Below, piece after piece: positions 893 through 17,290 of a DNA stretch of 18,596 bases. The DNA lies in IMG/VR virus record IMGVR_UViG_2703718820_000014; one strand, 5' to 3'. The notes under the pieces are model-generated. The model did not search any database and was not told where the DNA came from. It worked only from the letters and a program-made list of their open reading frames with translations. Source of the DNA: a virus (lineage: Duplodnaviria > Heunggongvirae > Uroviricota > Caudoviricetes). Numbering within the stretch: the stretch's first letter is position 1; each line of letters opens with the position of its first letter. Made by a program: the position numbers and the translations under genes.

Positions 893-1951
893 TCATCCGT
901 TCTGACTGACTAAATCCTGAACTTCCCTGACAGTCTGCTCAAAACGTTCAGTCTCCAGCTCAACGCCAGTTGCACGACGTCCCAGCGCCATCGCTGCTTT
1001 GACTGTCGAACCCGACCCCATGAAGAAATCTGCAACCAGGTCACCCGGACGACTGCTCGCGCTGATTATCTGCTGCAGCATTTCTGCTGGTTTTTCGCAC
1101 GGATGTTTCCCGGGATAGTACTGCACCGGTTTATGCGTCCACACATCGGTGTACGGCACCTGCGCCGTCACGCCAAAATACCGCCGCAGATACTTATATT
1201 CACTCTGCAGTTCCGCATACTGCCGGTTCAGTTCACTGTATGTGCTGACCAGTTGGTGATGTGGCTTTTCCAGTTCTCCGCGCTGATGCTTCTCTTCTGC
1301 CACCCGGGCAAACAGCGCCTGTAATTTCAGATAATCGCTTTCGTCCGGTAGCTGCCACTGGCTGGCACTGAACCAGTGCGACACCATGTTTTTCTTTCCT
1401 GTGGCATCAGCAATCTGTTTTGCCGTTATCCCCAGGGCAGCACGTGCATCACGAAAGTAAGAAATCAGCGGGGCCATCACATGCTGTTTCAGTGCCCTGC
1501 CCTTCGCCTCATACCCGGCATCTTTCGGGCGATACGGCCCCTGATAATGTTCCGCGAACAGAATGCGCTCTGTGGCGGGGAAATACGCCCGCAGGCTTTC
1601 CTTGTTGCACCCGTTCCAGCGTCCGGACGGCTTCGCCCAGATAATATGGTTCAGCACACTGAAGCGTTCACGCATCATGATTTCAATGTCAGATGCCAGG
1701 CGATGGCCACAGAACAGGTAAAGACTTCCGGCAGGTTTCAGCACCCGCCAGAACTGCGCAAGACACTGGTCCAGCCACTTCAGGTAATCATCGTCGCCCT
1801 TCCACTGGTTATCCCAACCCTCAGGCTTCACTTTAAAGTACGGCGGGTCCGTGACTATCAGGTCAACAGAATTTTCGGGTAACGACCGGATAAATTCCAG
1901 GCAGTCGGCGTTGATTAACTCACAACTGGATATTTTTACAGTGTTAAGCAT
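893..1951 (-). CDS. DNA methyltransferase, N6-adenine/N4-cytosine type (PF01555-like, beta class), orphan
   Basis: 352-aa ORF with ATG at 1951. DPPY motif (motif IV) near the N-terminus in VTDPPYF and an AdoMet motif I-like FFMGSGST near the C-terminus. No adjacent restriction endonuclease ORF. Confidence 0.85.
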   Translation of the reverse strand: MLNTVKISSCELINADCLEFIRSLPENSVDLIVTDPPYFKVKPEGWDNQWKGDDDYLKWLDQCLAQFWRVLKPAGSLYLFCGHRLASDIEIMMRERFSVLNHIIWAKPSGRWNGCNKESLRAYFPATERILFAEHYQGPYRPKDAGYEAKGRALKQHVMAPLISYFRDARAALGITAKQIADATGKKNMVSHWFSASQWQLPDESDYLKLQALFARVAEEKHQRGELEKPHHQLVSTYSELNRQYAELQSEYKYLRRYFGVTAQVPYTDVWTHKPVQYYPGKHPCEKPAEMLQQIISASSRPGDLVADFFMGSGSTVKAAMALGRRATGVELETERFEQTVREVQDLVSQNG

Positions 1952-2090
1952 GGATCATTAAGCCTGTCTCTGATAGGCTCATTCTGCTTTTGCGCAAAGC
2001 AGTGGGCCTGAGGTTTGCTTGTGATCCAGACGCATGAGCAGATGGCTGGTGAGTGCCCCTAACACCCACCAGCCGCCCATTTACCACAAA

Positions 2091-2113
2091 TAAAAAAGCC
2101 TTCATGACTGAAG
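2091..2113 (-). terminator. Weak candidate terminator overlapping the stop codon of the small upstream gene
   Basis: 5-bp stem cttca/tgaag at 2100-2104 and 2109-2113; the A6 run at 2092-2097 is a T-run on the - strand. Confidence 0.3.
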
Positions 2114-2299
2114 ACGTCTGTAACAACCGAACTGATAGTCTGCCAGACCCGCCATAACAAGCTGGGTCAGTATTAACTGACAGCGTTCGCGTGAAAGGTA
2201 CGTATTCTGTGCAATCTCCCCGACTGTCGCCGGTTCGGTGACGCTTAATTCATTAAACACCACTCTGGCGGTTTCTGTCATATCCTGCTGTTTCAGCAT
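2102..2299 (-). CDS. Small hypothetical protein (about 65 aa), possible winged-helix fold
   Basis: ATG at 2299 is preceded by GGGGA about 9 nt upstream. The longer GTG-start version beginning at 2422 abuts the T-run of the terminator and has no SD, so it is disfavoured. Confidence 0.4.
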   Translation of the reverse strand: MLKQQDMTETARVVFNELSVTEPATVGEIAQNTYLSRERCQLILTQLVMAGLADYQFGCYRRLQS

Positions 2300-2422
2300 G
2301 TCTTTTCCCCTTTTCCGGTTAACGTGACACACCAATAACTCTTGTCGAAAAAGCCAGCAAGCTGAAAGAACGGTATTAATAACCACCAGCGAATTTATTG
2401 CGCTGCTGTATATTACGGACAC

Positions 2423-2443
2423 AAAAAAACCACCTTCCGGTGG
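2423..2443 (-). terminator. tR'-like intrinsic terminator downstream of the Q-like gene
   Basis: Hairpin ccacc-ttcc-ggtgg at 2430-2443 followed on the - strand by T7 (A7 at 2423-2429 on + strand). About 75 bp downstream of the Q-like stop, as expected for the short pR' transcript of lambdoid phages. Confidence 0.5.
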
Positions 2444-2515
2444 CTTCCTTGTGCGAAAAAACTTGCGTTTCGCCTCGCGATACAGCCTTGCGAAGCTTAT
2501 ACGGATTGAAGCAGT

Positions 2516-3088
2516 TTATTGATCAGTTTGCAACATTTTTTTCTCTGTAACAAAAGCCATACGCATGGGGGCATGTAACATAAATTCAGATATCCCCAAC
2601 CACTGATCAATTCGGCGTCTGCACGTAACCAACGTCCACTCAGGATGATCTGCATTTAACCTTTCGGCCATTTTCAGTTTGCTCATTCCTCGTCCTTCGT
2701 ACCTTTGCCGGAGAATATTGATTAGCCCGGGATATTCCCCAAGCACCTCACTGATAACGCGATCAATAATCAACGCCTCTGTGTCTGTACAATGTGACAA
2801 CCAGCTCTTCTGCTTCCCTCTGGTCATATCCCGAAAAAATGCCTCAAGTTCCGGTTTATCCAGCCCGGATTTCTTCATTCTGCGTAAAACTTCATTAACT
2901 GCTGTTTTCGTCAGCTTTTTCGAAACCAGTAACCGGTTAAACATATTTCCGGATTTACCCCCACCGATATACGACCACCGCCCCCACATCCGTAATTTCC
3001 CCTGGATCCAGACTGCTTCCAGCGTGTTCAGGCGTAAATGTTCGCCGCTTTTGCCTGTAATTTCCGGATATATCATATTTACGCTCAC
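2516..3088 (-). CDS. Putative late-gene antiterminator Q-like protein
   Basis: 190-aa ORF directly downstream of rusA with a GTGA start/stop overlap (alternative ATG at 3076), followed by a terminator hairpin. Assignment rests on position; there is no similarity to lambda Q itself, so the family is uncertain. Confidence 0.5.
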   Translation of the reverse strand: MSVNMIYPEITGKSGEHLRLNTLEAVWIQGKLRMWGRWSYIGGGKSGNMFNRLLVSKKLTKTAVNEVLRRMKKSGLDKPELEAFFRDMTRGKQKSWLSHCTDTEALIIDRVISEVLGEYPGLINILRQRYEGRGMSKLKMAERLNADHPEWTLVTCRRRIDQWLGISEFMLHAPMRMAFVTEKKMLQTDQ

Positions 3089-3450
3089 TCACTCTCAATT
3101 TTGTAAATCTTCACACCCAGCCGACCACCAAGAACAAGCTGACCACGTACAATATTGATTTCATCAAACTGCTCGTCATCAATGAGCACTCCCGCATGCG
3201 TCAGCGCATCCAGCGGTGCTTTCAGAATGTTGTCCAGGTCACGACGACGCTTATCCGGTGGCTCTGCAATAATTTTTATTGCCAGCCGTCCGGACAGGCT
3301 TAATTTCAGCCGCTGCTGGCGAACAATAAGCGCCACTGCCCGGCGATAGCGCTTTCCCTCCTCCGATATAAAATATGTGCTGCCACGGCGTCGCCAGTAA
3401 GTGTTCACCGTCGGCGGGTAAGGCAAAACAAATTCTATGCGCTCGGTCAT
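3085..3450 (-). CDS. rusA: Holliday junction resolvase RusA
   Basis: 121-aa ORF; the motif DKRRRDLDNILKAPLDALTHAGVLIDD matches the RusA catalytic region as recalled. ATG at 3450 immediately follows the upstream stop. Confidence 0.9.
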   Translation of the reverse strand: MTERIEFVLPYPPTVNTYWRRRGSTYFISEEGKRYRRAVALIVRQQRLKLSLSGRLAIKIIAEPPDKRRRDLDNILKAPLDALTHAGVLIDDEQFDEINIVRGQLVLGGRLGVKIYKIESE

Positions 3451-7994: not shown

Positions 7995-8308
7995 GCCTGA
8001 ACCCTCCTGTCGAAATAAACGTAGTTATTCACTGCGCCCAACTTCATCCCAAACTTTTCGGCAATTTCCCGTCGGGGTACGCCACGCTGATGCAGTTGCC
8101 GCGCCAGCTCAATATCACGCTGTGAACATTTGGCTGACTGGTGATAATCACCCCGTAACATCATGCAGATACCCAGTTCCCGCGCTTTCGTCCTGACGGC
8201 AGCCCCACTACGGCCAATCAGACTGCCGATGCTTTCGACTGTCATCGTTCCCGCACACTGCCGGAGTATCATAATTTCCGCCCAGCGCCACTTCTTCCAG
8301 CCACTCAC
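7991..8308 (-). CDS. Putative HTH regulatory protein (tentatively GcrA-like)
   Basis: GTG at 8308 overlaps the upstream TGA stop. Two helix-turn-helix-like segments ([39 protein letters not shown] and [19 protein letters not shown]). Family assignment is tentative. Confidence 0.5.
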
Positions 8309-9066
8309 CGCAGCAGCTCTCTGGTGGCGGTAATATCCCGGAGAATATCCCTGTGTTTGTTCAGTTCCCGCAGCGCGGCACAGACTCGCTCCCACTTCTG
8401 AACATCACTTTTCGCCCTGCGCAGCGCCAGGTTTGCCCTGCACAGGGACAGAAAAATCAGCTCATCTGCTTGCGTTTCGGTAAACGATGGCAACGACTGC
8501 ACAATGTCCGCCACTGTTTCTGTTTTAATATCTTCCTGTGTTGCAGATTCCTGTACTGGTAACGCAACACCTGCTGGCTGAGGAAAGGCCTTACCATCAT
8601 TTTCCGTTACCGGCACGGCTTTCGGCTCTGCTGGTAAATTATCGCCCGGCATGCAGTAACGAAATTTACCGTTCTGATTTACGCGTGCCAGGCGTCCCGT
8701 TGCGGTTACCACCGCCAACGTGGAAGCAACCTTGCGAATGCTAACACCGAACTTATCCGCCAGTTCCTCACACGTTTTAGCCCCCTCCTGACCGATAAAC
8801 TCAATCATCATGTCTGCGGTAACTTTTTGTTCGACCTCCCCGGTCAGCACATCCGGTACTTCAGACTGTTCTGGCTGCTCTTCGGTTACCCCGGATTCAC
8901 CTTCGCCAGCCAGAAACCAGATGTGACCCGCTTTATCAACAACGCCATTTCTTTTGAGTTCCCACAGTTCGTTGAGAACCTCTTCACGACTGATATCAAG
9001 CCGCTCAGCCAGTCCAACAGAGCTGGCTTTTCCCATTGCTTTCAGTGCGTCAAAAACGGTTTCCAT
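8305..9066 (-). CDS. Hypothetical phage protein with N-terminal winged-helix-like domain and acidic central region
   Basis: 253-aa ORF with ATG at 9066 preceded by AGGAGG at 8-nt spacing. Confidence 0.7.
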
Positions 9067-11420: not shown

Positions 11421-11471
11421 ACTTATCAATTTTTTCTGTAGGATCGCGGAACTAGTTTACGAGGGGTGGTG

Positions 11472-11864
11472 ATGATCTTTGTAAAACGCCTTCAGCAGGT
11501 GTTGCAGGAATTGAATATAAACCAGTCAGAGCTGGGAAGACGTCTTGGTGTAAAACCCCAATCCGTGCAAGGTTGGTTGAAAGGCGTGATGCCAAGAATG
11601 GATAAACTGGAAAAATTAGCAGAGCTCTCACAACATCCCGTCCATTGGTTCTTTATGGAAGAAGAAACTCTCGGCGATAAAATGGCTGTATCCAGTAATG
11701 ACAACCAACCGCAACTTACAGAACAACAACGAAAAATCATATCGCTTTTAGATGAGTTACCTCAAAGCGACGCAGAGCAGATCATTCGTGATATGGAGCA
11801 AAAACGCGATTTCTATAAACGGAAACTTGAAGAGTTACTGCGGCAGAAAAACAAAACTGCCTGA
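11472..11864 (+). CDS. DicA/RacR-like prophage repressor (XRE HTH, no S24 peptidase domain)
   Basis: 130 aa from ATG 11472 with GAGGGG upstream. N-terminal HTH (NQSELGRRLGVKPQSVQGWLKG); C-terminal region resembles DicA as recalled (LLDELPQSDAEQ...EELLRQKNK). Confidence 0.8.
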   Translation: MIFVKRLQQVLQELNINQSELGRRLGVKPQSVQGWLKGVMPRMDKLEKLAELSQHPVHWFFMEEETLGDKMAVSSNDNQPQLTEQQRKIISLLDELPQSDAEQIIRDMEQKRDFYKRKLEELLRQKNKTA

Positions 11865-11910: not shown

Positions 11911-12270
11911 TTATAATCCAACCAGGCTTTCCAGGGGGATACCAAATTGATTATGAAGACGGCGAATCATTGGTAACGTAAGGCTTCTGGTACCATTCAA
12001 CACCTCATAAACCCGATTTTTTTTCCCAATTGCGGGTTCCAAATCTTTCACAGTCAGCCCCTGCTGTTCCATGCGAAATCTTATAGCTTCAATTGGGGAT
12101 GGTGGCTCAATGGGATAATGTTTTTTTTCATATTCCTCTATTAGCAAACACATCACCTCAAAAAAATCCCCCTCAGGCGTGTCAATTTCGGGCTCATTGT
12201 CGAACATGGGTTCAACAGCACGCAACGCGGCTTCATAATCTTGCTCTGTACGAATAGGTTTGATGTTCAT
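11911..12270 (-). CDS. higA: HigA-like antitoxin (HTH)
   Basis: 119 aa; motifs IKPIRTEQDYEAAL and GLTVKDLEPAIGKKNRVYEVLNGTRSLTLPMIRRL are typical of HigA. It begins 2 nt after the HigB-like stop. Confidence 0.75.
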   Translation of the reverse strand: MNIKPIRTEQDYEAALRAVEPMFDNEPEIDTPEGDFFEVMCLLIEEYEKKHYPIEPPSPIEAIRFRMEQQGLTVKDLEPAIGKKNRVYEVLNGTRSLTLPMIRRLHNQFGIPLESLVGL

Positions 12271-12272
12271 GC

Positions 12273-12575
12273 TTACTCCAGTTCGATGGTATCAGCATCA
12301 ATAGCATCGTATTCCTTGTGGTTTCCGATGAATTTAACAAATACCCATCCTCGCTGATACGCAATTGCAACAATTAAACGGTAATGATTACCTTTTATGT
12401 TGAATACCACGCGCCGGTTTTTCAATATACTGGCCGTTCGGTATTGTGCCTTAATGTCTGCTGGGCTTTTCCAGTCAGCTTTTGCCGCCTCATCCACCCA
12501 TGCCCTTAGCGGTTGTTCTGCATCAGGATTCTCCGCCCAAAAATCCCTGAGTGTTTTAACTGAGATAATCTTCAT
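12273..12575 (-). CDS. higB: HigB-like toxin (RelE/ParE superfamily)
   Basis: 100 aa from ATG 12575; VFNIKGNHYRLIVAIAY...FIGNHKEYD matches the HigB pattern. Toxin-first gene order as in higBA. Confidence 0.7.
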   Translation of the reverse strand: MKIISVKTLRDFWAENPDAEQPLRAWVDEAAKADWKSPADIKAQYRTASILKNRRVVFNIKGNHYRLIVAIAYQRGWVFVKFIGNHKEYDAIDADTIELE

Positions 12576-12581
12576 AACTGT

Positions 12582-12610
12582 ATAGTAGTCCCATTTTGGG
12601 ACTGATGCAA
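12582..12610 (-). promoter_or_regulatory. Candidate higBA-like promoter with embedded palindromic operator
   Basis: On the - strand: TTGCAT (12610-12605), 17-nt spacer containing the perfect palindrome GTCCCAAAATGGGAC (12588-12602), then TACTAT (12587-12582), ending 6 nt before the ATG. Confidence 0.4.
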
Positions 12611-12620
12611 CAGCTCGCAA

Positions 12621-12849: not shown

Positions 12850-13002
12850 ATGGATACGCTCAATCTTGGCAACAACGAATCTCTGGTATGCGGTGTGTTC
12901 CCTAACCAGGACGGCACGTTTACCGCGATGACGTATACCAAAAGTAAAAAGTTTAAAACCGAAGCTGGCGCGCGTCGCTGGTTAGCCAGAAACACTAACT
13001 GA
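12850..13002 (+). CDS. ydfA: YdfA-like small protein (50 aa)
   Basis: ATG at 12850 preceded by GAGGT. MDTLNLGNNESLVCGVFPNQDGTFTAMTYTKSKKFKTEAGARRWL matches the recalled Qin YdfA sequence. Confidence 0.6.
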   Translation: MDTLNLGNNESLVCGVFPNQDGTFTAMTYTKSKKFKTEAGARRWLARNTN

Positions 13003-13269
13003 TTAGCACCAGTAAAAACAGGTTGCCACTGGTTAATTTACCCTGAAAAGTCAGGGCACAACAGAAAGCACACGGCGAAGGCGTCTTTTCCTTAGAAGGC
13101 TTGTCGTTAGATTTCTTCGACCGTGTGCTTCCGGTTGTGGCAATCCGCGAAATGGCGCGGCGGTAAATATGGCTGGGGGTTTTTATTTCTTTTCCCCTCA
13201 TTGAGGACACCGGGTTGTCAGGTTGACCATATGCCTGAGTGACAACCCCGCCACAACATCTCCATGTTT

Positions 13270-13329
13270 CAATGGCAGTGGTACCTTTGGCGGCATCAGT
13301 TTATTAGCTTTCTGATGTCCGCCCTTTTT
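13270..13329 (+). ncRNA. dicF: DicF-like small RNA (cell-division inhibitory sRNA of dicB operons); ends approximate
   Basis: Stem ggcggcatcag (13289-13299) pairs with ctgatg-t-ccgcc (13312-13323), followed by T5 (13325-13329). The hairpin and its 3' flank closely resemble the recalled E. coli dicF locus; the 5' part is diverged. Confidence 0.55.
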
Positions 13330-13520
13330 AAAGTGAATTTTGTGATGCGGTGAATGCGGCTAAGCGCACGCGGAACAGTTAAAACCGTAAAGTGGTCTTT
13401 TACGGGGCGTAACGGGCATACTTCTGTATTCCGGCGTTAATTGTTAACTGGTTAACGTCACCTGGAGGCACCAGGCACTGCATCGACAAAGTTCACTTCG
13501 GTGATGAAAGGTAAGAGAAA

Positions 13521-14375
13521 ATGTTGAATGTAGCTATTGAAAACCAGAACGGGTGGAATTATAGTGCACCTGCACCTCATAAAACGGGTGCCGGGCGTGG
13601 AAACCCGATGATGATCAACGCGCATAACCGCGCTCAGGCGGTTTTTTTATGCGTCAAGCACAGCCACATTCAAATTATGGTGGGGCGTGCAGGGCAGCTG
13701 CAAGGCTGGCCGGCTCCGTTGGTCACCGGTATTTCCACCCCTGTACGTCTCACCACCTTTATGGTCGTGGAAAACCTCGGTGGTGAGTTATTTAAACTGA
13801 TCAACGAGGCTGCCATCATGGCTACTACCCTTACCCTTTCTCACCCTGACGTAACCATCGAAAATGGTCGCGCAGTCACCACGTCTGTTGCAGTTGCAGA
13901 GTTCTTCCACAAACTGCATAAAAACGTCATTCAAAAAATTGAAGCTCTGGAATGTTCCGACGAATTCACTGAGCTTAATTTTCAGCCCAGCGAATACACC
14001 GACACAACCGGGCGCAAACTCCCTATGTACCAAATCACCAAAAACGGCTTCGTTTTCCTGGTGATGGGCTTCACCGGCAAAAAAGCCGCTGCATTTAAAG
14101 AAGCCTACATCGCTGAGTTCGATCGCATGGAGAAAGAACTGCGCCAGAATAACGCCCCGTCTCCCGACAAAATGATTCACGGGGACGGACGTACCCTGGT
14201 TATCCGTCTCGACGAACACGGCAATATCAAATTCACTGAAACCGTTCCGGACGGCGCAATGGTCTGCACCCTGGATACCTTCCAGTTTTATCTGGAGAAA
14301 CAAGGCTGGACTCTTGTAAACCGGAGCGCAATTAAAAATATGACTGTGGAGCAATTACTAAAAATTCATTGTTGA
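13521..14375 (+). CDS. Rha-family phage regulatory protein (Rha domain starts near Met at 13818; 99 upstream codons are open in frame)
   Basis: The region MATTLTLSHPDVTIENGRAVTTSVAVAEFFHKLHKNVIQKIEAL...FVFLVMGFTGKKAAAFKEAYIAEFDRME is typical of the Rha N-terminal domain. ATG 13521 has a modest SD; ATG 13818 has GAGG 8 nt upstream. Confidence 0.7.
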   Translation: MLNVAIENQNGWNYSAPAPHKTGAGRGNPMMINAHNRAQAVFLCVKHSHIQIMVGRAGQLQGWPAPLVTGISTPVRLTTFMVVENLGGELFKLINEAAIMATTLTLSHPDVTIENGRAVTTSVAVAEFFHKLHKNVIQKIEALECSDEFTELNFQPSEYTDTTGRKLPMYQITKNGFVFLVMGFTGKKAAAFKEAYIAEFDRMEKELRQNNAPSPDKMIHGDGRTLVIRLDEHGNIKFTETVPDGAMVCTLDTFQFYLEKQGWTLVNRSAIKNMTVEQLLKIHC

Positions 14376-14385
14376 GGACGCGATA

Positions 14386-14574
14386 ATGGAAACGTTATTA
14401 CCAAACGTTAATACGTCTGAAGGGTGTTTTGATATTGGTGTTCTGCTCAGTAACCGGGAGTTTACTGAAGATGCCATTAAGATGAGAAAATATGAGCCTT
14501 ATCTTCTCAATGATAATTCCATACTCTCCAGAATTGCCCTTCTTAAACTTGGTATTTTCGGAGGGCAGCAGTGA
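14386..14574 (+). CDS. dicB: DicB-like cell division inhibitor
   Basis: 62 aa; the N-terminus METLLPNVNTSEGCFDIGV...FTEDAI matches the recalled Qin DicB sequence. ATG lies 10 nt after the Rha stop. Confidence 0.7.
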   Translation: METLLPNVNTSEGCFDIGVLLSNREFTEDAIKMRKYEPYLLNDNSILSRIALLKLGIFGGQQ

Positions 14575-14759
14575 CTTCTGCATTTGCACTGGTGATGACG
14601 GTTTTTCTTATAACGGGTGAGCCACAGAATGTGATTACCGGAATTTATGCCAGTAAAGAATCATGCCTCCGTGCAAGAGACGAGCAAAAAATTTCTGGCG
14701 AATGCCTCCCGTTAAAAAAAGTATCGCTGTACCTGAATAACGAAATACCGGCTGGATAA
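14571..14759 (+). CDS. ydfD: YdfD-like small membrane (lysis-type) protein
   Basis: GTG at 14571 overlaps the dicB-like stop (GTGA) with GGAGGG upstream. Hydrophobic N-terminal segment MTSAFALVMTVFLITG and a C-terminal NNEIPAG resembling recalled YdfD. Confidence 0.55.
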   Translation: MTSAFALVMTVFLITGEPQNVITGIYASKESCLRARDEQKISGECLPLKKVSLYLNNEIPAG

Positions 14760-14851
14760 TCCACCAGCCATATTAACGCCATACCCGTTGATTAAGCATG
14801 CCAGCAATGGCAGGGGTTCGTACAACCTTAAAATAGTTATGAGGTTTATCC

Positions 14852-17290
14852 ATGAGCACTGATAAAGAAGAATTTTCGCTATATTGCGAAGCAAAAAATG
14901 ACAAGGTCAGAAAACGCCTTGGGATTAAAGGAGGTTTTTACTGGACTACAGCAAAAAAATTATCTGTTGCCATCTCACGGTGCGTTGTTGCAATGGACGA
15001 GGCAGGCTACGACGCTGATGATTTCAAAAAACCTGTCCGCGTCCATTTCCCCGTTGTGAATGACCTTCCACCGGAAGGCGTGTTTGATACCGAATTCTGC
15101 AACCGCTATGAAAAAGGCGGGGAAGATGGCATCACAATGATATTTATAGCGCCTTCCCCCTCAGTTCAGGACAAACCAGCCAGCACTGACAATACCAACG
15201 TCAATGGCGAAGACATGGCTGAGATTGAGGATAATATGCTCCTGCCGATTTCCGGTCAGGAACTGCCCATTCGCTGGCTTGCGCAACATGGCAGCGAAAA
15301 ACCGGTAACGCACGTTTCACGGGAAGAACTTCAGGCATTACATATCGCACGAGCTGAAGAACTGCCGGCTGTTACTGCCCTGGCTATTTCCCACAACACA
15401 AAGCTGCTCGACCCGCTGGAGATTCGCGACCTTCACAAACTGGTACGCGACACAGACAAAGTTTTCCCTAATCCCGTTAATTCCAGTCTGGGGTTAATGA
15501 CTGCTTTTTTCGAAGCATACCTGGACGCTGACTATACCGATCGAGGTCTGCTGACAAAAGAGTGGATGAAAGGAAATCGTGTTTCTCGCATCACCCGCAC
15601 GGCTTCCGGTGCAAATGCCGGTGGCGGAAATAAAACCGATCGTAATCCTGACTTAGTACACACCCTCGATACTCTGGATGTGGAGGCTGCAGCAGCCACA
15701 CTTCCGATGGATTTTAATATTTATGAAATACCCGTGAGCGTTTATCTTCGCGCAAAAGAAATCGTCCTGAAAAAAGAAAGTCCGTTCAGGGAATGGTCCG
15801 CAGCACTTCGCGCAACCCCTGGTATCCTGGACTATTCCCGCGCAGCTATTTTTGCACTTATCCGGAGCGCCCACCCTGAGTTTTATCACTACCCGGGACG
15901 CCTTCAGGGGTATATCAATGCCAACCTGACAGAAACTGATCACGAGAATCCCACAGCTGAAACGCTCATGGCTGCCCGGCATACACCGGAAAAAGATATC
16001 CTGGAAGAAATTAACGGCGGACTGGCTGCTGAGTGCAAAACAGAAGAAGAAAAAAATGATGAAGAAAACCCGCAACCATCTGGCGCAATGGCAGATGAAC
16101 AGGCAACGGCTGAAACAATGGCAGCGGATACAGTTGAACATCATCAGGACCCGCAGCCGCTGGATGACAAGTCACAGGTAAAAGTTACTGCTGAAGAAGT
16201 AAATAAAATTATGGAGGCAGCAGACATCAGTCGACCAGATGCCGACAAATTGCTTGCCGCTTCTCGTGGTGAGTTTGTTGAAGGGATTAGCGACCCGAAT
16301 GATTCGAAATGGGTTAAGGGGATTGAAACCTGCGATTCTGTGAACCAGAACCAGCAAGAAACGGAACAGAACGGTCAGAAAGCGGAACAAAACAGCCCAA
16401 ATGCGTTACAAAACGAGCCAGAAACGAAACAACCTGAACCAGTAGTGCAACAGGAAGAGGAAAAAGTTTGTACCGCATGCAATCAGACTGGTGGTGGTAA
16501 CTGCCCTGATTGTGGCGCAGTGATGGGGGACGCAACCTACCAGGAGACATTCAACGAAGAAAGCCAGGATGAAGCCCGGGAAAAAGATCCGGAGGAAATG
16601 GAAAGTGCCGGACTCCCGAACAAGGAGTGCACCGAAGGCGATCAACATGCCAATGGCAATAATGAAACAGGCGAGACAGCAAATCCCTTAATTAAGGTGA
16701 ACGGTCATCGTGAAATCACATCCACCAGCAGGTTGTGGCACCATCTGATGATTGACCTTGAAACAATGGGCAAAAATCCTGACGCACCAATAGCCTCAAT
16801 AGGCGCTGTATTTTTCGATCCACAAACCGGAGAGCAGGGGCCTGAATTCAGCAAAATAATTGATATGGGTACATGTGGCGGCACTGTAGACATAAGCACC
16901 ATCGAATGGTGGCTTCAACGCTCTGGCGAAGCCCGTGCCGCCATTTTAGCTGATCGAATACCGCTTGATGATGCGCTTTTACAATTACGGGAATTTATAG
17001 ACGAAAACTCCGGTGAGTTTTTTGTTCAGGTCTGGGGAAATGGAGCCAACTTCGACAACGTGATTTTACGCCGTTCATATGAACGGCAGGAGATCCCCTG
17101 CCCGTGGCGTTACACCAATGATCGTGATGTAAGAACGATTGTTGCCCTGGGGCTGGTGATGGATTTCGATGCTCGAAGTGTCATCACATTTGAGGGTGAA
17201 CGCCATAATGCCCTGCACGATGCGCGTTACCAGGCAAAATACGTTTCAGCTATCTGGCAAAAACTGTTCCCGAATCAGGCTGATTTTTAA
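14852..17290 (+). CDS. RecE-N-terminal-like protein with C-terminal DnaQ-like (DEDDh) 3'-5' exonuclease domain
   Basis: 812-aa ORF with GAGGT upstream of ATG 14852. The N-terminal 600 aa contains blocks recalled from Rac RecE ([94 protein letters not shown]). The C-terminal domain has exo motifs [13 protein letters not shown] and HNALHDARY. Confidence 0.85.

Follow-up and report, generated by a model that had tools for sequence, protein, structure and literature searches.

The window analysed here is a stretch of viral DNA of 18,596 nucleotides (nt) (Caudoviricetes; IMG/VR record IMGVR_UViG_2703718820_000014) from a lambdoid, Qin-like prophage, and our subject is its open reading frame (ORF) at 13521-14375, in which codons 1-99 form an 'Ash' leader and codons 100-284 a Rha-family protein. 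A preliminary description of the sequence had recorded this ORF from ATG 13521, with the Rha-like domain beginning at the Met at 13818, and had explained the first 99 codons either as a new domain at the N-terminus or as a long leader that is translated. The ORF of 284 amino acids (aa) appears in the ORF list as described, and the Rha domain lies in the second half of the protein, past Met100 (ATG 13818). We consider it likely that the 99 codons lead a mobile cassette for an antirepressor, carrying a complete RNA switch of the P1 immI / P4 CI / Gifsy-1 IsrK type in the reading frame of Rha. The features within the ORF are as follows.

13521..14375, + strand: Ash leader and Rha ORF, ATG start, 284 aa (ORF list)
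13537..13565, + strand: sigma-70 promoter (TTGAAA, 17 nt, TATAGT) within the ORF; start expected near 13572, the first isrK base
13572..13648, + strand: small RNA (sRNA) like IsrK / P4 seqA (Rfam RF01394; 65.7 bits against a gathering threshold of 50)
13597-13603, + strand: target box a1, GTGGAAA, in the IsrK-like sRNA
13612-13620, + strand: target box b1, TGATCAACG, in the IsrK-like sRNA
13673..13760, + strand: antisense RNA like C4 (P1) / CI (P4) (Rfam RF01695; 73.5 bits against a gathering threshold of 45)
13677..13679, + strand: invariant ATG in the 5' stem of C4, where TTATGGTGG is invariant
13717-13725, + strand: C4 specificity segment b', CGUUGGUCA, in the loop of hairpin 2
13732-13738, + strand: C4 specificity segment a', UUUCCAC
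13767..13809, + strand: second target set, a2 and b2, read from the sequence
13767-13773, + strand: target box a2, GTGGAAA
13798-13806, + strand: target box b2, TGATCAACG, sharing one base with the Shine-Dalgarno (SD) sequence GAGG at 13806-13809
13818..14375, + strand: Rha-family (Bro-network) regulator, 185 aa counted from the SD-preceded ATG 13818

The nearest in-frame stop 5' of ATG 13521 is a TAA at 13512, and the frame stays open from 13515 to 14372. ATG 13521 is preceded, at 9 nt spacing, by the SD-like AAAGG (13507-11), and ATG 13818 by GAGG, 8 nt ahead of it; the motif at this second start, GAGGCTGCCAT(C/T)ATGGCTAC, is kept in 9 of 11 diverged loci. The Rha assignment comes from Phage_pRha (PF09669; residues 120-205, encoded by 13878-14135; 107.1 bits against a cutoff of 29.9) and TIGR02681 (residues 109-210; 114.5 bits against 45.95). 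Among the PHROGs that match the ORF (995, 518, 373, 63, and 2379), the last three are anti-repressor families, which match the C-terminal part of the protein; these labels, and the place of Rha behind a C4-type switch, are the grounds on which we presume, by analogy, that it acts as an antirepressor. NCBI has a protein identical to the 284-aa product, under the name Rha family transcriptional regulator, and the Prokaryotic Genome Annotation Pipeline (PGAP) gives the same long coding sequence (CDS) in E. coli. The Rha stop (TGA 14373-75) overlaps the dicB Shine-Dalgarno sequence (tTGAGGA), 10 nt before the dicB ATG at 14386, and termination of the long ORF at this site could couple to dicB translation.

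A scan of 13150-14450 returned the site at 13537-13565 as the sole promoter-like sequence, fitting at 10 of 12 positions, and the T, A, A, and T positions of its −10 element are (nearly) invariant in alignment A1. It looks constitutive and is the counterpart of PisrK in Gifsy-1, P1c4/P51b in P1, and PLE in P4. The sRNA that follows ends at an intrinsic terminator, which a terminator scan found as a stem (13626-13643) trailed by U7. A score above gathering, a promoter to itself, and Rho-independent termination mark it as one of the IsrK class; a permissive Rfam scan also placed a weak c4-a1b1 match (RF03163, "a1,b1 targets of C4") at 13559-13611. The match to RF01695 is full length (model 1-87). 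C4 RNAs are further defined as a class by RNase P processing from the leader and by their in vivo role of repressing the synthesis of an antirepressor. Rha shares its frame with the ATG of the C4 5' stem, and initiation at that ATG would yield a 232-aa product.

Segment a' can pair with a1 and with a2 over 7 bp, and segment b' with b1 and with b2 over 9 bp, the latter including one G-U. Duplexes of the window's C4 probe are predicted at −24.2 kcal/mol with a1b1 and −27.0 kcal/mol with a2b2, and in the minimum free energy (MFE) fold of the read-through leader (z = −3.6) the terminator and C4 both keep their structure. In the same fold, GAUGAUG beside b1 (13608-13615) is paired to the CAUCAU around the start codon of Rha (13812-13820), a possible additional, long-range sequestration of that start.

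The same arrangement was followed through relatives. Modules were gathered frame-blind, with a degenerate C4-core DNA pattern on viral contigs, which gave 102 unique modules; the 29 non-redundant representatives (<97% identity; median pairwise identity 68%, minimum 53%) were picked by the motif GAGG...ATGGC at +140/+143, a choice that may favour the open-frame class. When the Rfam C4 structure (27 pairs) is laid on these 29 relatives, 783 of 783 cells hold standard pairs and both sides change in 8 pairs; the covariation score was reached by 0 of 500 shuffles, the retrieval pattern having fixed some columns, and the long closing stem and two hairpins are supported by covariation. An alignment of the 11 diverged loci shows conserved stems and hypervariable a/b boxes that nonetheless shift jointly at all three sites. 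Cognate duplexes are stronger than non-cognate ones, for C4 with a1b1 (means of −27.6 and −17.1 kcal/mol) as for C4 with a2b2 (−33.4 and −20.8 kcal/mol), a gain of about 10-12 kcal/mol, and no partner outdoes the cognate one in 25 of 29 cases for a1b1 and 22 of 29 for a2b2. Complete pairing with covariation, together with the stronger cognate duplexes, thus argues from sequence that the RNA switch is real and specificity-coded, and its identity as a module of the P1/P4/Gifsy-1 type is almost certain.

The reading frame through this module is also kept. In the 11 diverged loci the leader frame is open in every case, while the remaining two frames hold 1-6 stops. Among the 102 modules, 87 are stop-free in the leader frame over 245 nt, while the two alternative frames average 2.2 and 3.7 stops; in about 88 the frame runs 243-867 nt onward into the cargo gene, and 13 have a short ORF only. 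The 29 representatives contain no stop in the leader frame against 17.4 ± 3.1 expected from column shuffles (minimum 9 in 500), whereas the other two frames fit expectation (59 against 57.1 and 104 against 104.6). The avoidance extends to both parts of the leader, with none against 5.4 expected upstream of the C4 ATG and none against 12.0 downstream, and every indel within the module is exactly 3 nt. An in-frame ATG recurs 156-186 nt upstream of the C4 ATG, ahead of the internal promoter, in unrelated upstream contexts, sometimes behind GGGAGGTG and sometimes overlapping the preceding stop as ATGA; in the lambdoid phages mEp460, ST64B, cdtI, SfV, and Stx1 the ORF begins about 360 nt further upstream, with an ATGA overlap with the preceding gene. 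The surmise of the preliminary description that 99 open codons are improbable by chance is thereby borne out. It had also named, as the outcome that would refute it, homologs that start uniformly at the internal Met with frame-breaking differences upstream; the best 120 protein homologs are instead 275-287 aa long, each with both Pfam domains (Phage_ASH and Phage_pRha), and the diverged loci keep the frame. These patterns make it very probable that selection holds the leader frame open.

What is kept open does not seem to be kept for its peptide. Column entropy by codon position is flat in the module (0.658/0.663/0.641) and becomes periodic in the first 48 Rha codons (0.858/0.692/1.293), codon periodicity setting in at 13818. 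The ratio of nonsynonymous to synonymous polymorphism (pN/pS) is 0.91 in frame for the leader, between its off-frame values of 0.82 and 0.97, but 0.54 in frame against 1.01 and 1.09 off frame for the Rha part. Flat entropy and a pN/pS of 0.91 therefore mean that the peptide is not conserved as such despite the open frame, and the kept frame in turn implies transit of ribosomes, though not for the sake of the amino-acid sequence.

The strongest competitor to a translated leader is that the extension is never translated, Rha starting solely at ATG 13818, so that the 284-aa annotation is an artefact of choosing the longest ORF and Phage_ASH a spurious family produced by translating a conserved RNA locus. 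The absent codon periodicity and the pN/pS value fit this, as do the promoter, the intrinsic terminator, and the pair of Rfam RNAs that lie within 'coding' sequence, the conserved SD and ATG at 13818 that form the predicted C4 target, and the lack of the open frame in P1 and Gifsy-1. It does not account for stop avoidance that is specific to one frame, for indels of 3 nt only, or for the recurrence of in-frame upstream ATGs and of ATGA overlaps with preceding genes, and products of the same frame in P4, eta and kil, are reported as translated in the summary given by PMC10111431. We regard an untranslated extension as unlikely.

Less likely still is that residues 1-99 are a true folded Ash domain with a function of its own, for instance regulatory or DNA-binding, fused to Rha, its overlap with the RNAs being secondary. 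Phage_ASH (PF10554) does cover residues 14-108, at 57.3 bits against a gathering threshold of 26, the architecture of Ash joined in frame to Rha or Ant is widespread, and PHROG profiles take in the leader region. However, the leader shows neither purifying selection at the amino-acid level nor codon periodicity, and its conserved 'residues' are RNA stems. Its variable blocks in the protein alignment (GRGNPMMIN/GIATPMFIM, GIST/GCSN, and MVVENL/EIATS-) correspond to a1/b1, b'/a', and a2/b2 read as codons; these boxes of antisense specificity co-vary three ways, and the blocks switch together. An AlphaFold2 (AF2) model of the 284-aa ORF from a 26-row alignment, poor overall (mean predicted local distance difference test, pLDDT, 37.5), gave 21-33 over residues 1-110 and no more than 42-55 even over the Rha domain. 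Used by itself as a protein query, the 99-aa leader drew mainly partial "ash family protein" fragments, with little depth. In the literature on Stx phages, which describes Rha/Ash proteins, the Ash domain stands without an assigned function (PMC8951638). Of the two explanations first offered for the 99 codons, the novel domain is not supported, the region being already a Pfam family, showing no amino-acid-level selection, and coinciding base for base with isrK, C4, promoter, and terminator; the long translated leader came close. The preliminary description did not register the RNA elements, the main content of the region. Structure and domain prediction for residues 1-99, which had been proposed as a check, yielded the Phage_ASH match and, from the poor AF2 model, only the low scores above. 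A chance origin of the open frame in a single sequence, for which we put the prior for 99 open codons at about 55% GC at roughly 1% per frame, is ruled out by the 11 loci, 102 modules, and 29 representatives, relatives at nucleotide identities as low as 53% having this frame open too.

The reading that we favour, of a switch built into a translated leader, can be set out by analogy with P1, P4, and Gifsy-1. In the repressed prophage the internal promoter would give mostly a 77-nt sRNA. Transcripts that read through would be processed into a C4-like RNA, which would pair with a2/b2, mask the SD of ATG 13818, and so keep Rha off, leaving the RNA untranslated and prone to termination; the IsrK-like RNA, with copies of the same boxes, could compete for C4 as a decoy. 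When transcription arrives from the upstream dicA-controlled operon, ribosomes could initiate at ATG 13521, upstream of the internal promoter, and would cross promoter, sRNA, terminator, C4, and targets. Their crossing would suppress both termination and C4 pairing, yield an N-terminally extended Rha, and let transcription proceed into dicB and beyond, and nested in-frame products of 284, 232, and 185 aa are predicted. Because ribosomes must cross the switch, the frame would have to stay open, and the amino-acid sequence would be free to follow the RNA. The antitermination role at this locus, argued by analogy, we judge only slightly better supported than its absence.

Several points count against the reading just described. 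The transcript, its processing, the repression, and the antitermination are ascribed to the window locus by analogy, and the exact roles of its IsrK-like and C4-like RNAs are uncertain; in Gifsy-1, IsrK is an activator that works through leader remodelling rather than a simple C4 decoy. The SD of ATG 13521 is weak, ATG 13677 has no obvious SD, and the motif by which the representatives were picked may have enriched for open frames. Ribosome transit is not universally required, as about 13 of the 102 modules with short ORFs indicate. The C4 region of P1 is an untranslated leader, in which the equivalent frame is stopped within c4 (locus positions 353 and 425), and in Gifsy-1, unlike the window, a stop closes the frame 3 nt before orf45 begins at its ATG. 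Finally, it is not proven that Rha-family proteins are antirepressors, and AnrP of Gifsy-1, considered as a Rha homolog, matches only weakly at its C-terminus (E = 0.006) and belongs to a different family.

A broader proposition can be advanced only tentatively, as somewhat less probable than its opposite: that in most members of the family promoter, sRNA, terminator, antisense RNA, and both target sites sit in one ORF purely so that ribosomes may cross them, the peptide being unconstrained, with Ash the protein shadow of an RNA family and the whole a portable, specificity-coded antirepressor cassette. If this holds, such a cassette could be inserted into an operon, as at dicF-dicB, or stacked in tandem without polarity, and it would deliver three nested isoforms of its cargo. 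P4 eta hints at this proposition, and the literature searched contained no explicit statement or quantification of it. Tandem loci occur. In L034 (IMGVR_UViG_2671181028_000005, reverse-complement 1384-3361) three leader and short-Rha cassettes follow one another with a 656-bp period; their ORFs of 219-220 aa are linked by 4-nt ATGA overlaps, and the cargo is near-identical while the a'/b' specificity boxes differ per unit. Two modules, not necessarily in tandem, are found at L023, L024, L078, L083, L100, and L115, and the C-terminus of protein P0076, 'KVHFGDER', is read from where the left end of a further cassette begins.

The preliminary description had placed the gene between a dicF-like and a dicB-like element, in an arrangement not that of Qin, and both statements stand. 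The surroundings of the ORF are listed here.

11466-11864, + strand: DicA-like helix-turn-helix (HTH) repressor
11911-12620, − strand: HigB-toxin / HTH-antitoxin pair (Pfam HigB_toxin, 113 bits; HTH_3)
13276..13324, + strand: diverged DicF-like element upstream of the cassette (RF00039; 36.4 bits, below the gathering threshold of 48)
13488-13495 and 14361-14368: AAAGTTCA and AAAATTCA, an imperfect 8-bp repeat at the cassette ends
13496..14368, + strand: leader and Rha cassette, 873 bp, an insertion relative to the Qin-type dicF-dicB spacer of BL21
14386..14574, + strand: dicB, directly 3' of the cassette (Pfam DicB, 124.4 bits, 62 of 62 residues)

The bounds of the cassette come from blastn of window positions 13000-14900 against the Qin locus of BL21 (L134), in which the left alignment stops at 13495 and the right restarts at 14361, BL21 holding one AAAATTCA. 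ATG 13521 and its AAAGG thus belong to the insert, and the stop TGA 14373-75 is backbone sequence. The arrangement is present at a coverage of at least 80% in 291 of 5,426 complete E. coli genomes. No dicB-derived duplication was found to flank the insert, the comparison of 13200-13575 with 14341-14800 giving only 7-9-nt matches besides the 8-bp junction repeat; in EC16, PGAP calls a "partial DicB" upstream of the cassette. The DicF-like element aligns to the dicF region of BL21, with many changes in its 5' part and loop, and its target range may differ from that of K-12 DicF.

Along the + strand the operon runs DUF1391, DicF-like element, cassette, dicB, DUF1482, and a RecE-like exonuclease, and the HigBA pair, an insert transcribed in the other direction, separates the DicA-like gene from the DUF1391 ydfA-like gene. 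Genes on the − strand encode a methylase, a Q-like antiterminator, RusA, replication P/O-like proteins, YdaT, and YdaS. A full-length match to the STnc100 sRNA family (RF02076, 168 bits) lies at 605-813 on the − strand, downstream of the DNA methylase ORF (893-1951, −) and the Q-like antiterminator (2516-3088, −); the dicF-dicB spacer has a partial STnc100-like match as well, at 13345-13483 (+), which scores below threshold (29 bits) and is conserved in BL21 Qin.

The practical consequence concerns annotation. This gene and about 1,800 database relatives named "Rha family regulator" or "ash family protein" need rereading: an RNA switch takes up the first third of the ORF, and Met100 is probably the start that is regulated. 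The Ash sequence would track the specificity of an antisense RNA and not a protein function, which would explain why no function has been assigned to it. The a'/b' boxes would set immunity or cross-talk specificity among co-resident prophages, with a bearing on prophage induction in pathogenic E. coli. Since the biology of P1, P4, N15, and Gifsy-1 is already established, the gain lies in annotation and context and not in a new mechanism: the window locus is a further case of a known RNA-controlled antirepressor module, in a dicF-dicB spacer context that is common in E. coli.

Set against the known systems, the window shares with the P1 record the order promoter, a1, b1, c4, a2, b2, followed in P1 by icd and ant1/ant2, and in both b2 ends about 10 nt ahead of the regulated ATG. 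The immI operon of P1/P7 (c4-icd-ant1/ant2) likewise has nested in-frame antirepressor products, Ant1 and Ant2; in P1, coupling is given by the separate icd ORF, and the promoter is C1-controlled.

Gifsy-1 resembles the window in its promoter (TTGACA-17-TATATT, at the same distance), IsrK match, terminator, C4-like STnc1160, and an antirepressor-type gene next in line. There the isrK promoter drives isrK-orf45-anrP, expression of anrP needs translation of orf45, and the processed RNA STnc1160 lies downstream of IsrK (PMC4825925, Hershko-Shalev et al. 2016). The first AUG of orf45 corresponds to the invariant ATG 13677 of the window, in the same frame (checked against Table 1C of PMC4825925). 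The orf45 stop is coupled to anrP through an AUGA, whereas the frame of ATG 13677 in the window, which has no such short ORF, runs on into Rha as a fusion. The b' loop of Gifsy-1 is 4 nt shorter, and its element lies downstream of antQ, that of the window in the dicB operon.

The Ash-Rha proteins of lambdoid, Stx, and P22-like phages (mEp460 gp41, ST64B Sb41, cdtI orf44, and SfV orf37) have the same Ash-Rha fusion with embedded isrK and C4. In these phages the ORF begins about 360 nt further upstream and overlaps the preceding gene of the PR operon by ATGA, whereas the window ORF has just 17 codons ahead of the sRNA start and lies in the dicB operon. The literature on APSE describes c4 and isrK RNAs as adjacent, beside BRO/Rha genes (PMC7313666).

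P4 offers a parallel for the open frame. Rfam places its C4 at 8420-8507 and its isrK-like RNA at 8615-8692 on the same strand, in the same order as in the window, and the equivalent frame is open from 8821 to 8168 through promoter, seqA, CI, and seqC, ending at the epsilon start. Its translation is colinear with that of the window (MV.QAGQ..GWP), ATG 13677 lies in the eta/kil frame, and P4 and the window alike have an internal promoter inside the ORF and nested in-frame starts. According to the summary in PMC10111431, which cites Forti et al. 1999, a constitutive promoter is internal to eta, and interactions of CI with seqA end the transcripts; truncation in frame gives Kil; Eta at full length comes solely from the upstream late promoter, coupled to the upstream gene; and translation of Eta prevents termination.

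The P4 CI locus appears to have Phage_ASH of Pfam as its shadow in protein. In the P4 RefSeq record (L012, NC_001609) a 137-aa CDS named 'cI gene product / transcriptional repressor' lies over the CI RNA at 8168-8584 (−). One survey of P4 satellites used PF10554 as an epsilon marker, and in phage P88 PF10554 matches the ORF of the RNA module, the annotated derepression protein matching PF25738 instead.

The window and P4 differ in that the window frame goes on into Rha and the P4 frame halts at the start of epsilon, in the spacer between sRNA and C4 (24 nt in the window, about 107 nt in P4), and in cargo, which is Rha in a lambdoid/Qin-like prophage and epsilon in P4. The mechanism is known experimentally in P4, whereas for the window we infer it, the comparison having been made at the level of sequence. 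On that comparison the window is placed in a P4-eta-like "open-through" class, to which the majority of the sampled modules belong, and outside the class of P1 and Gifsy-1.

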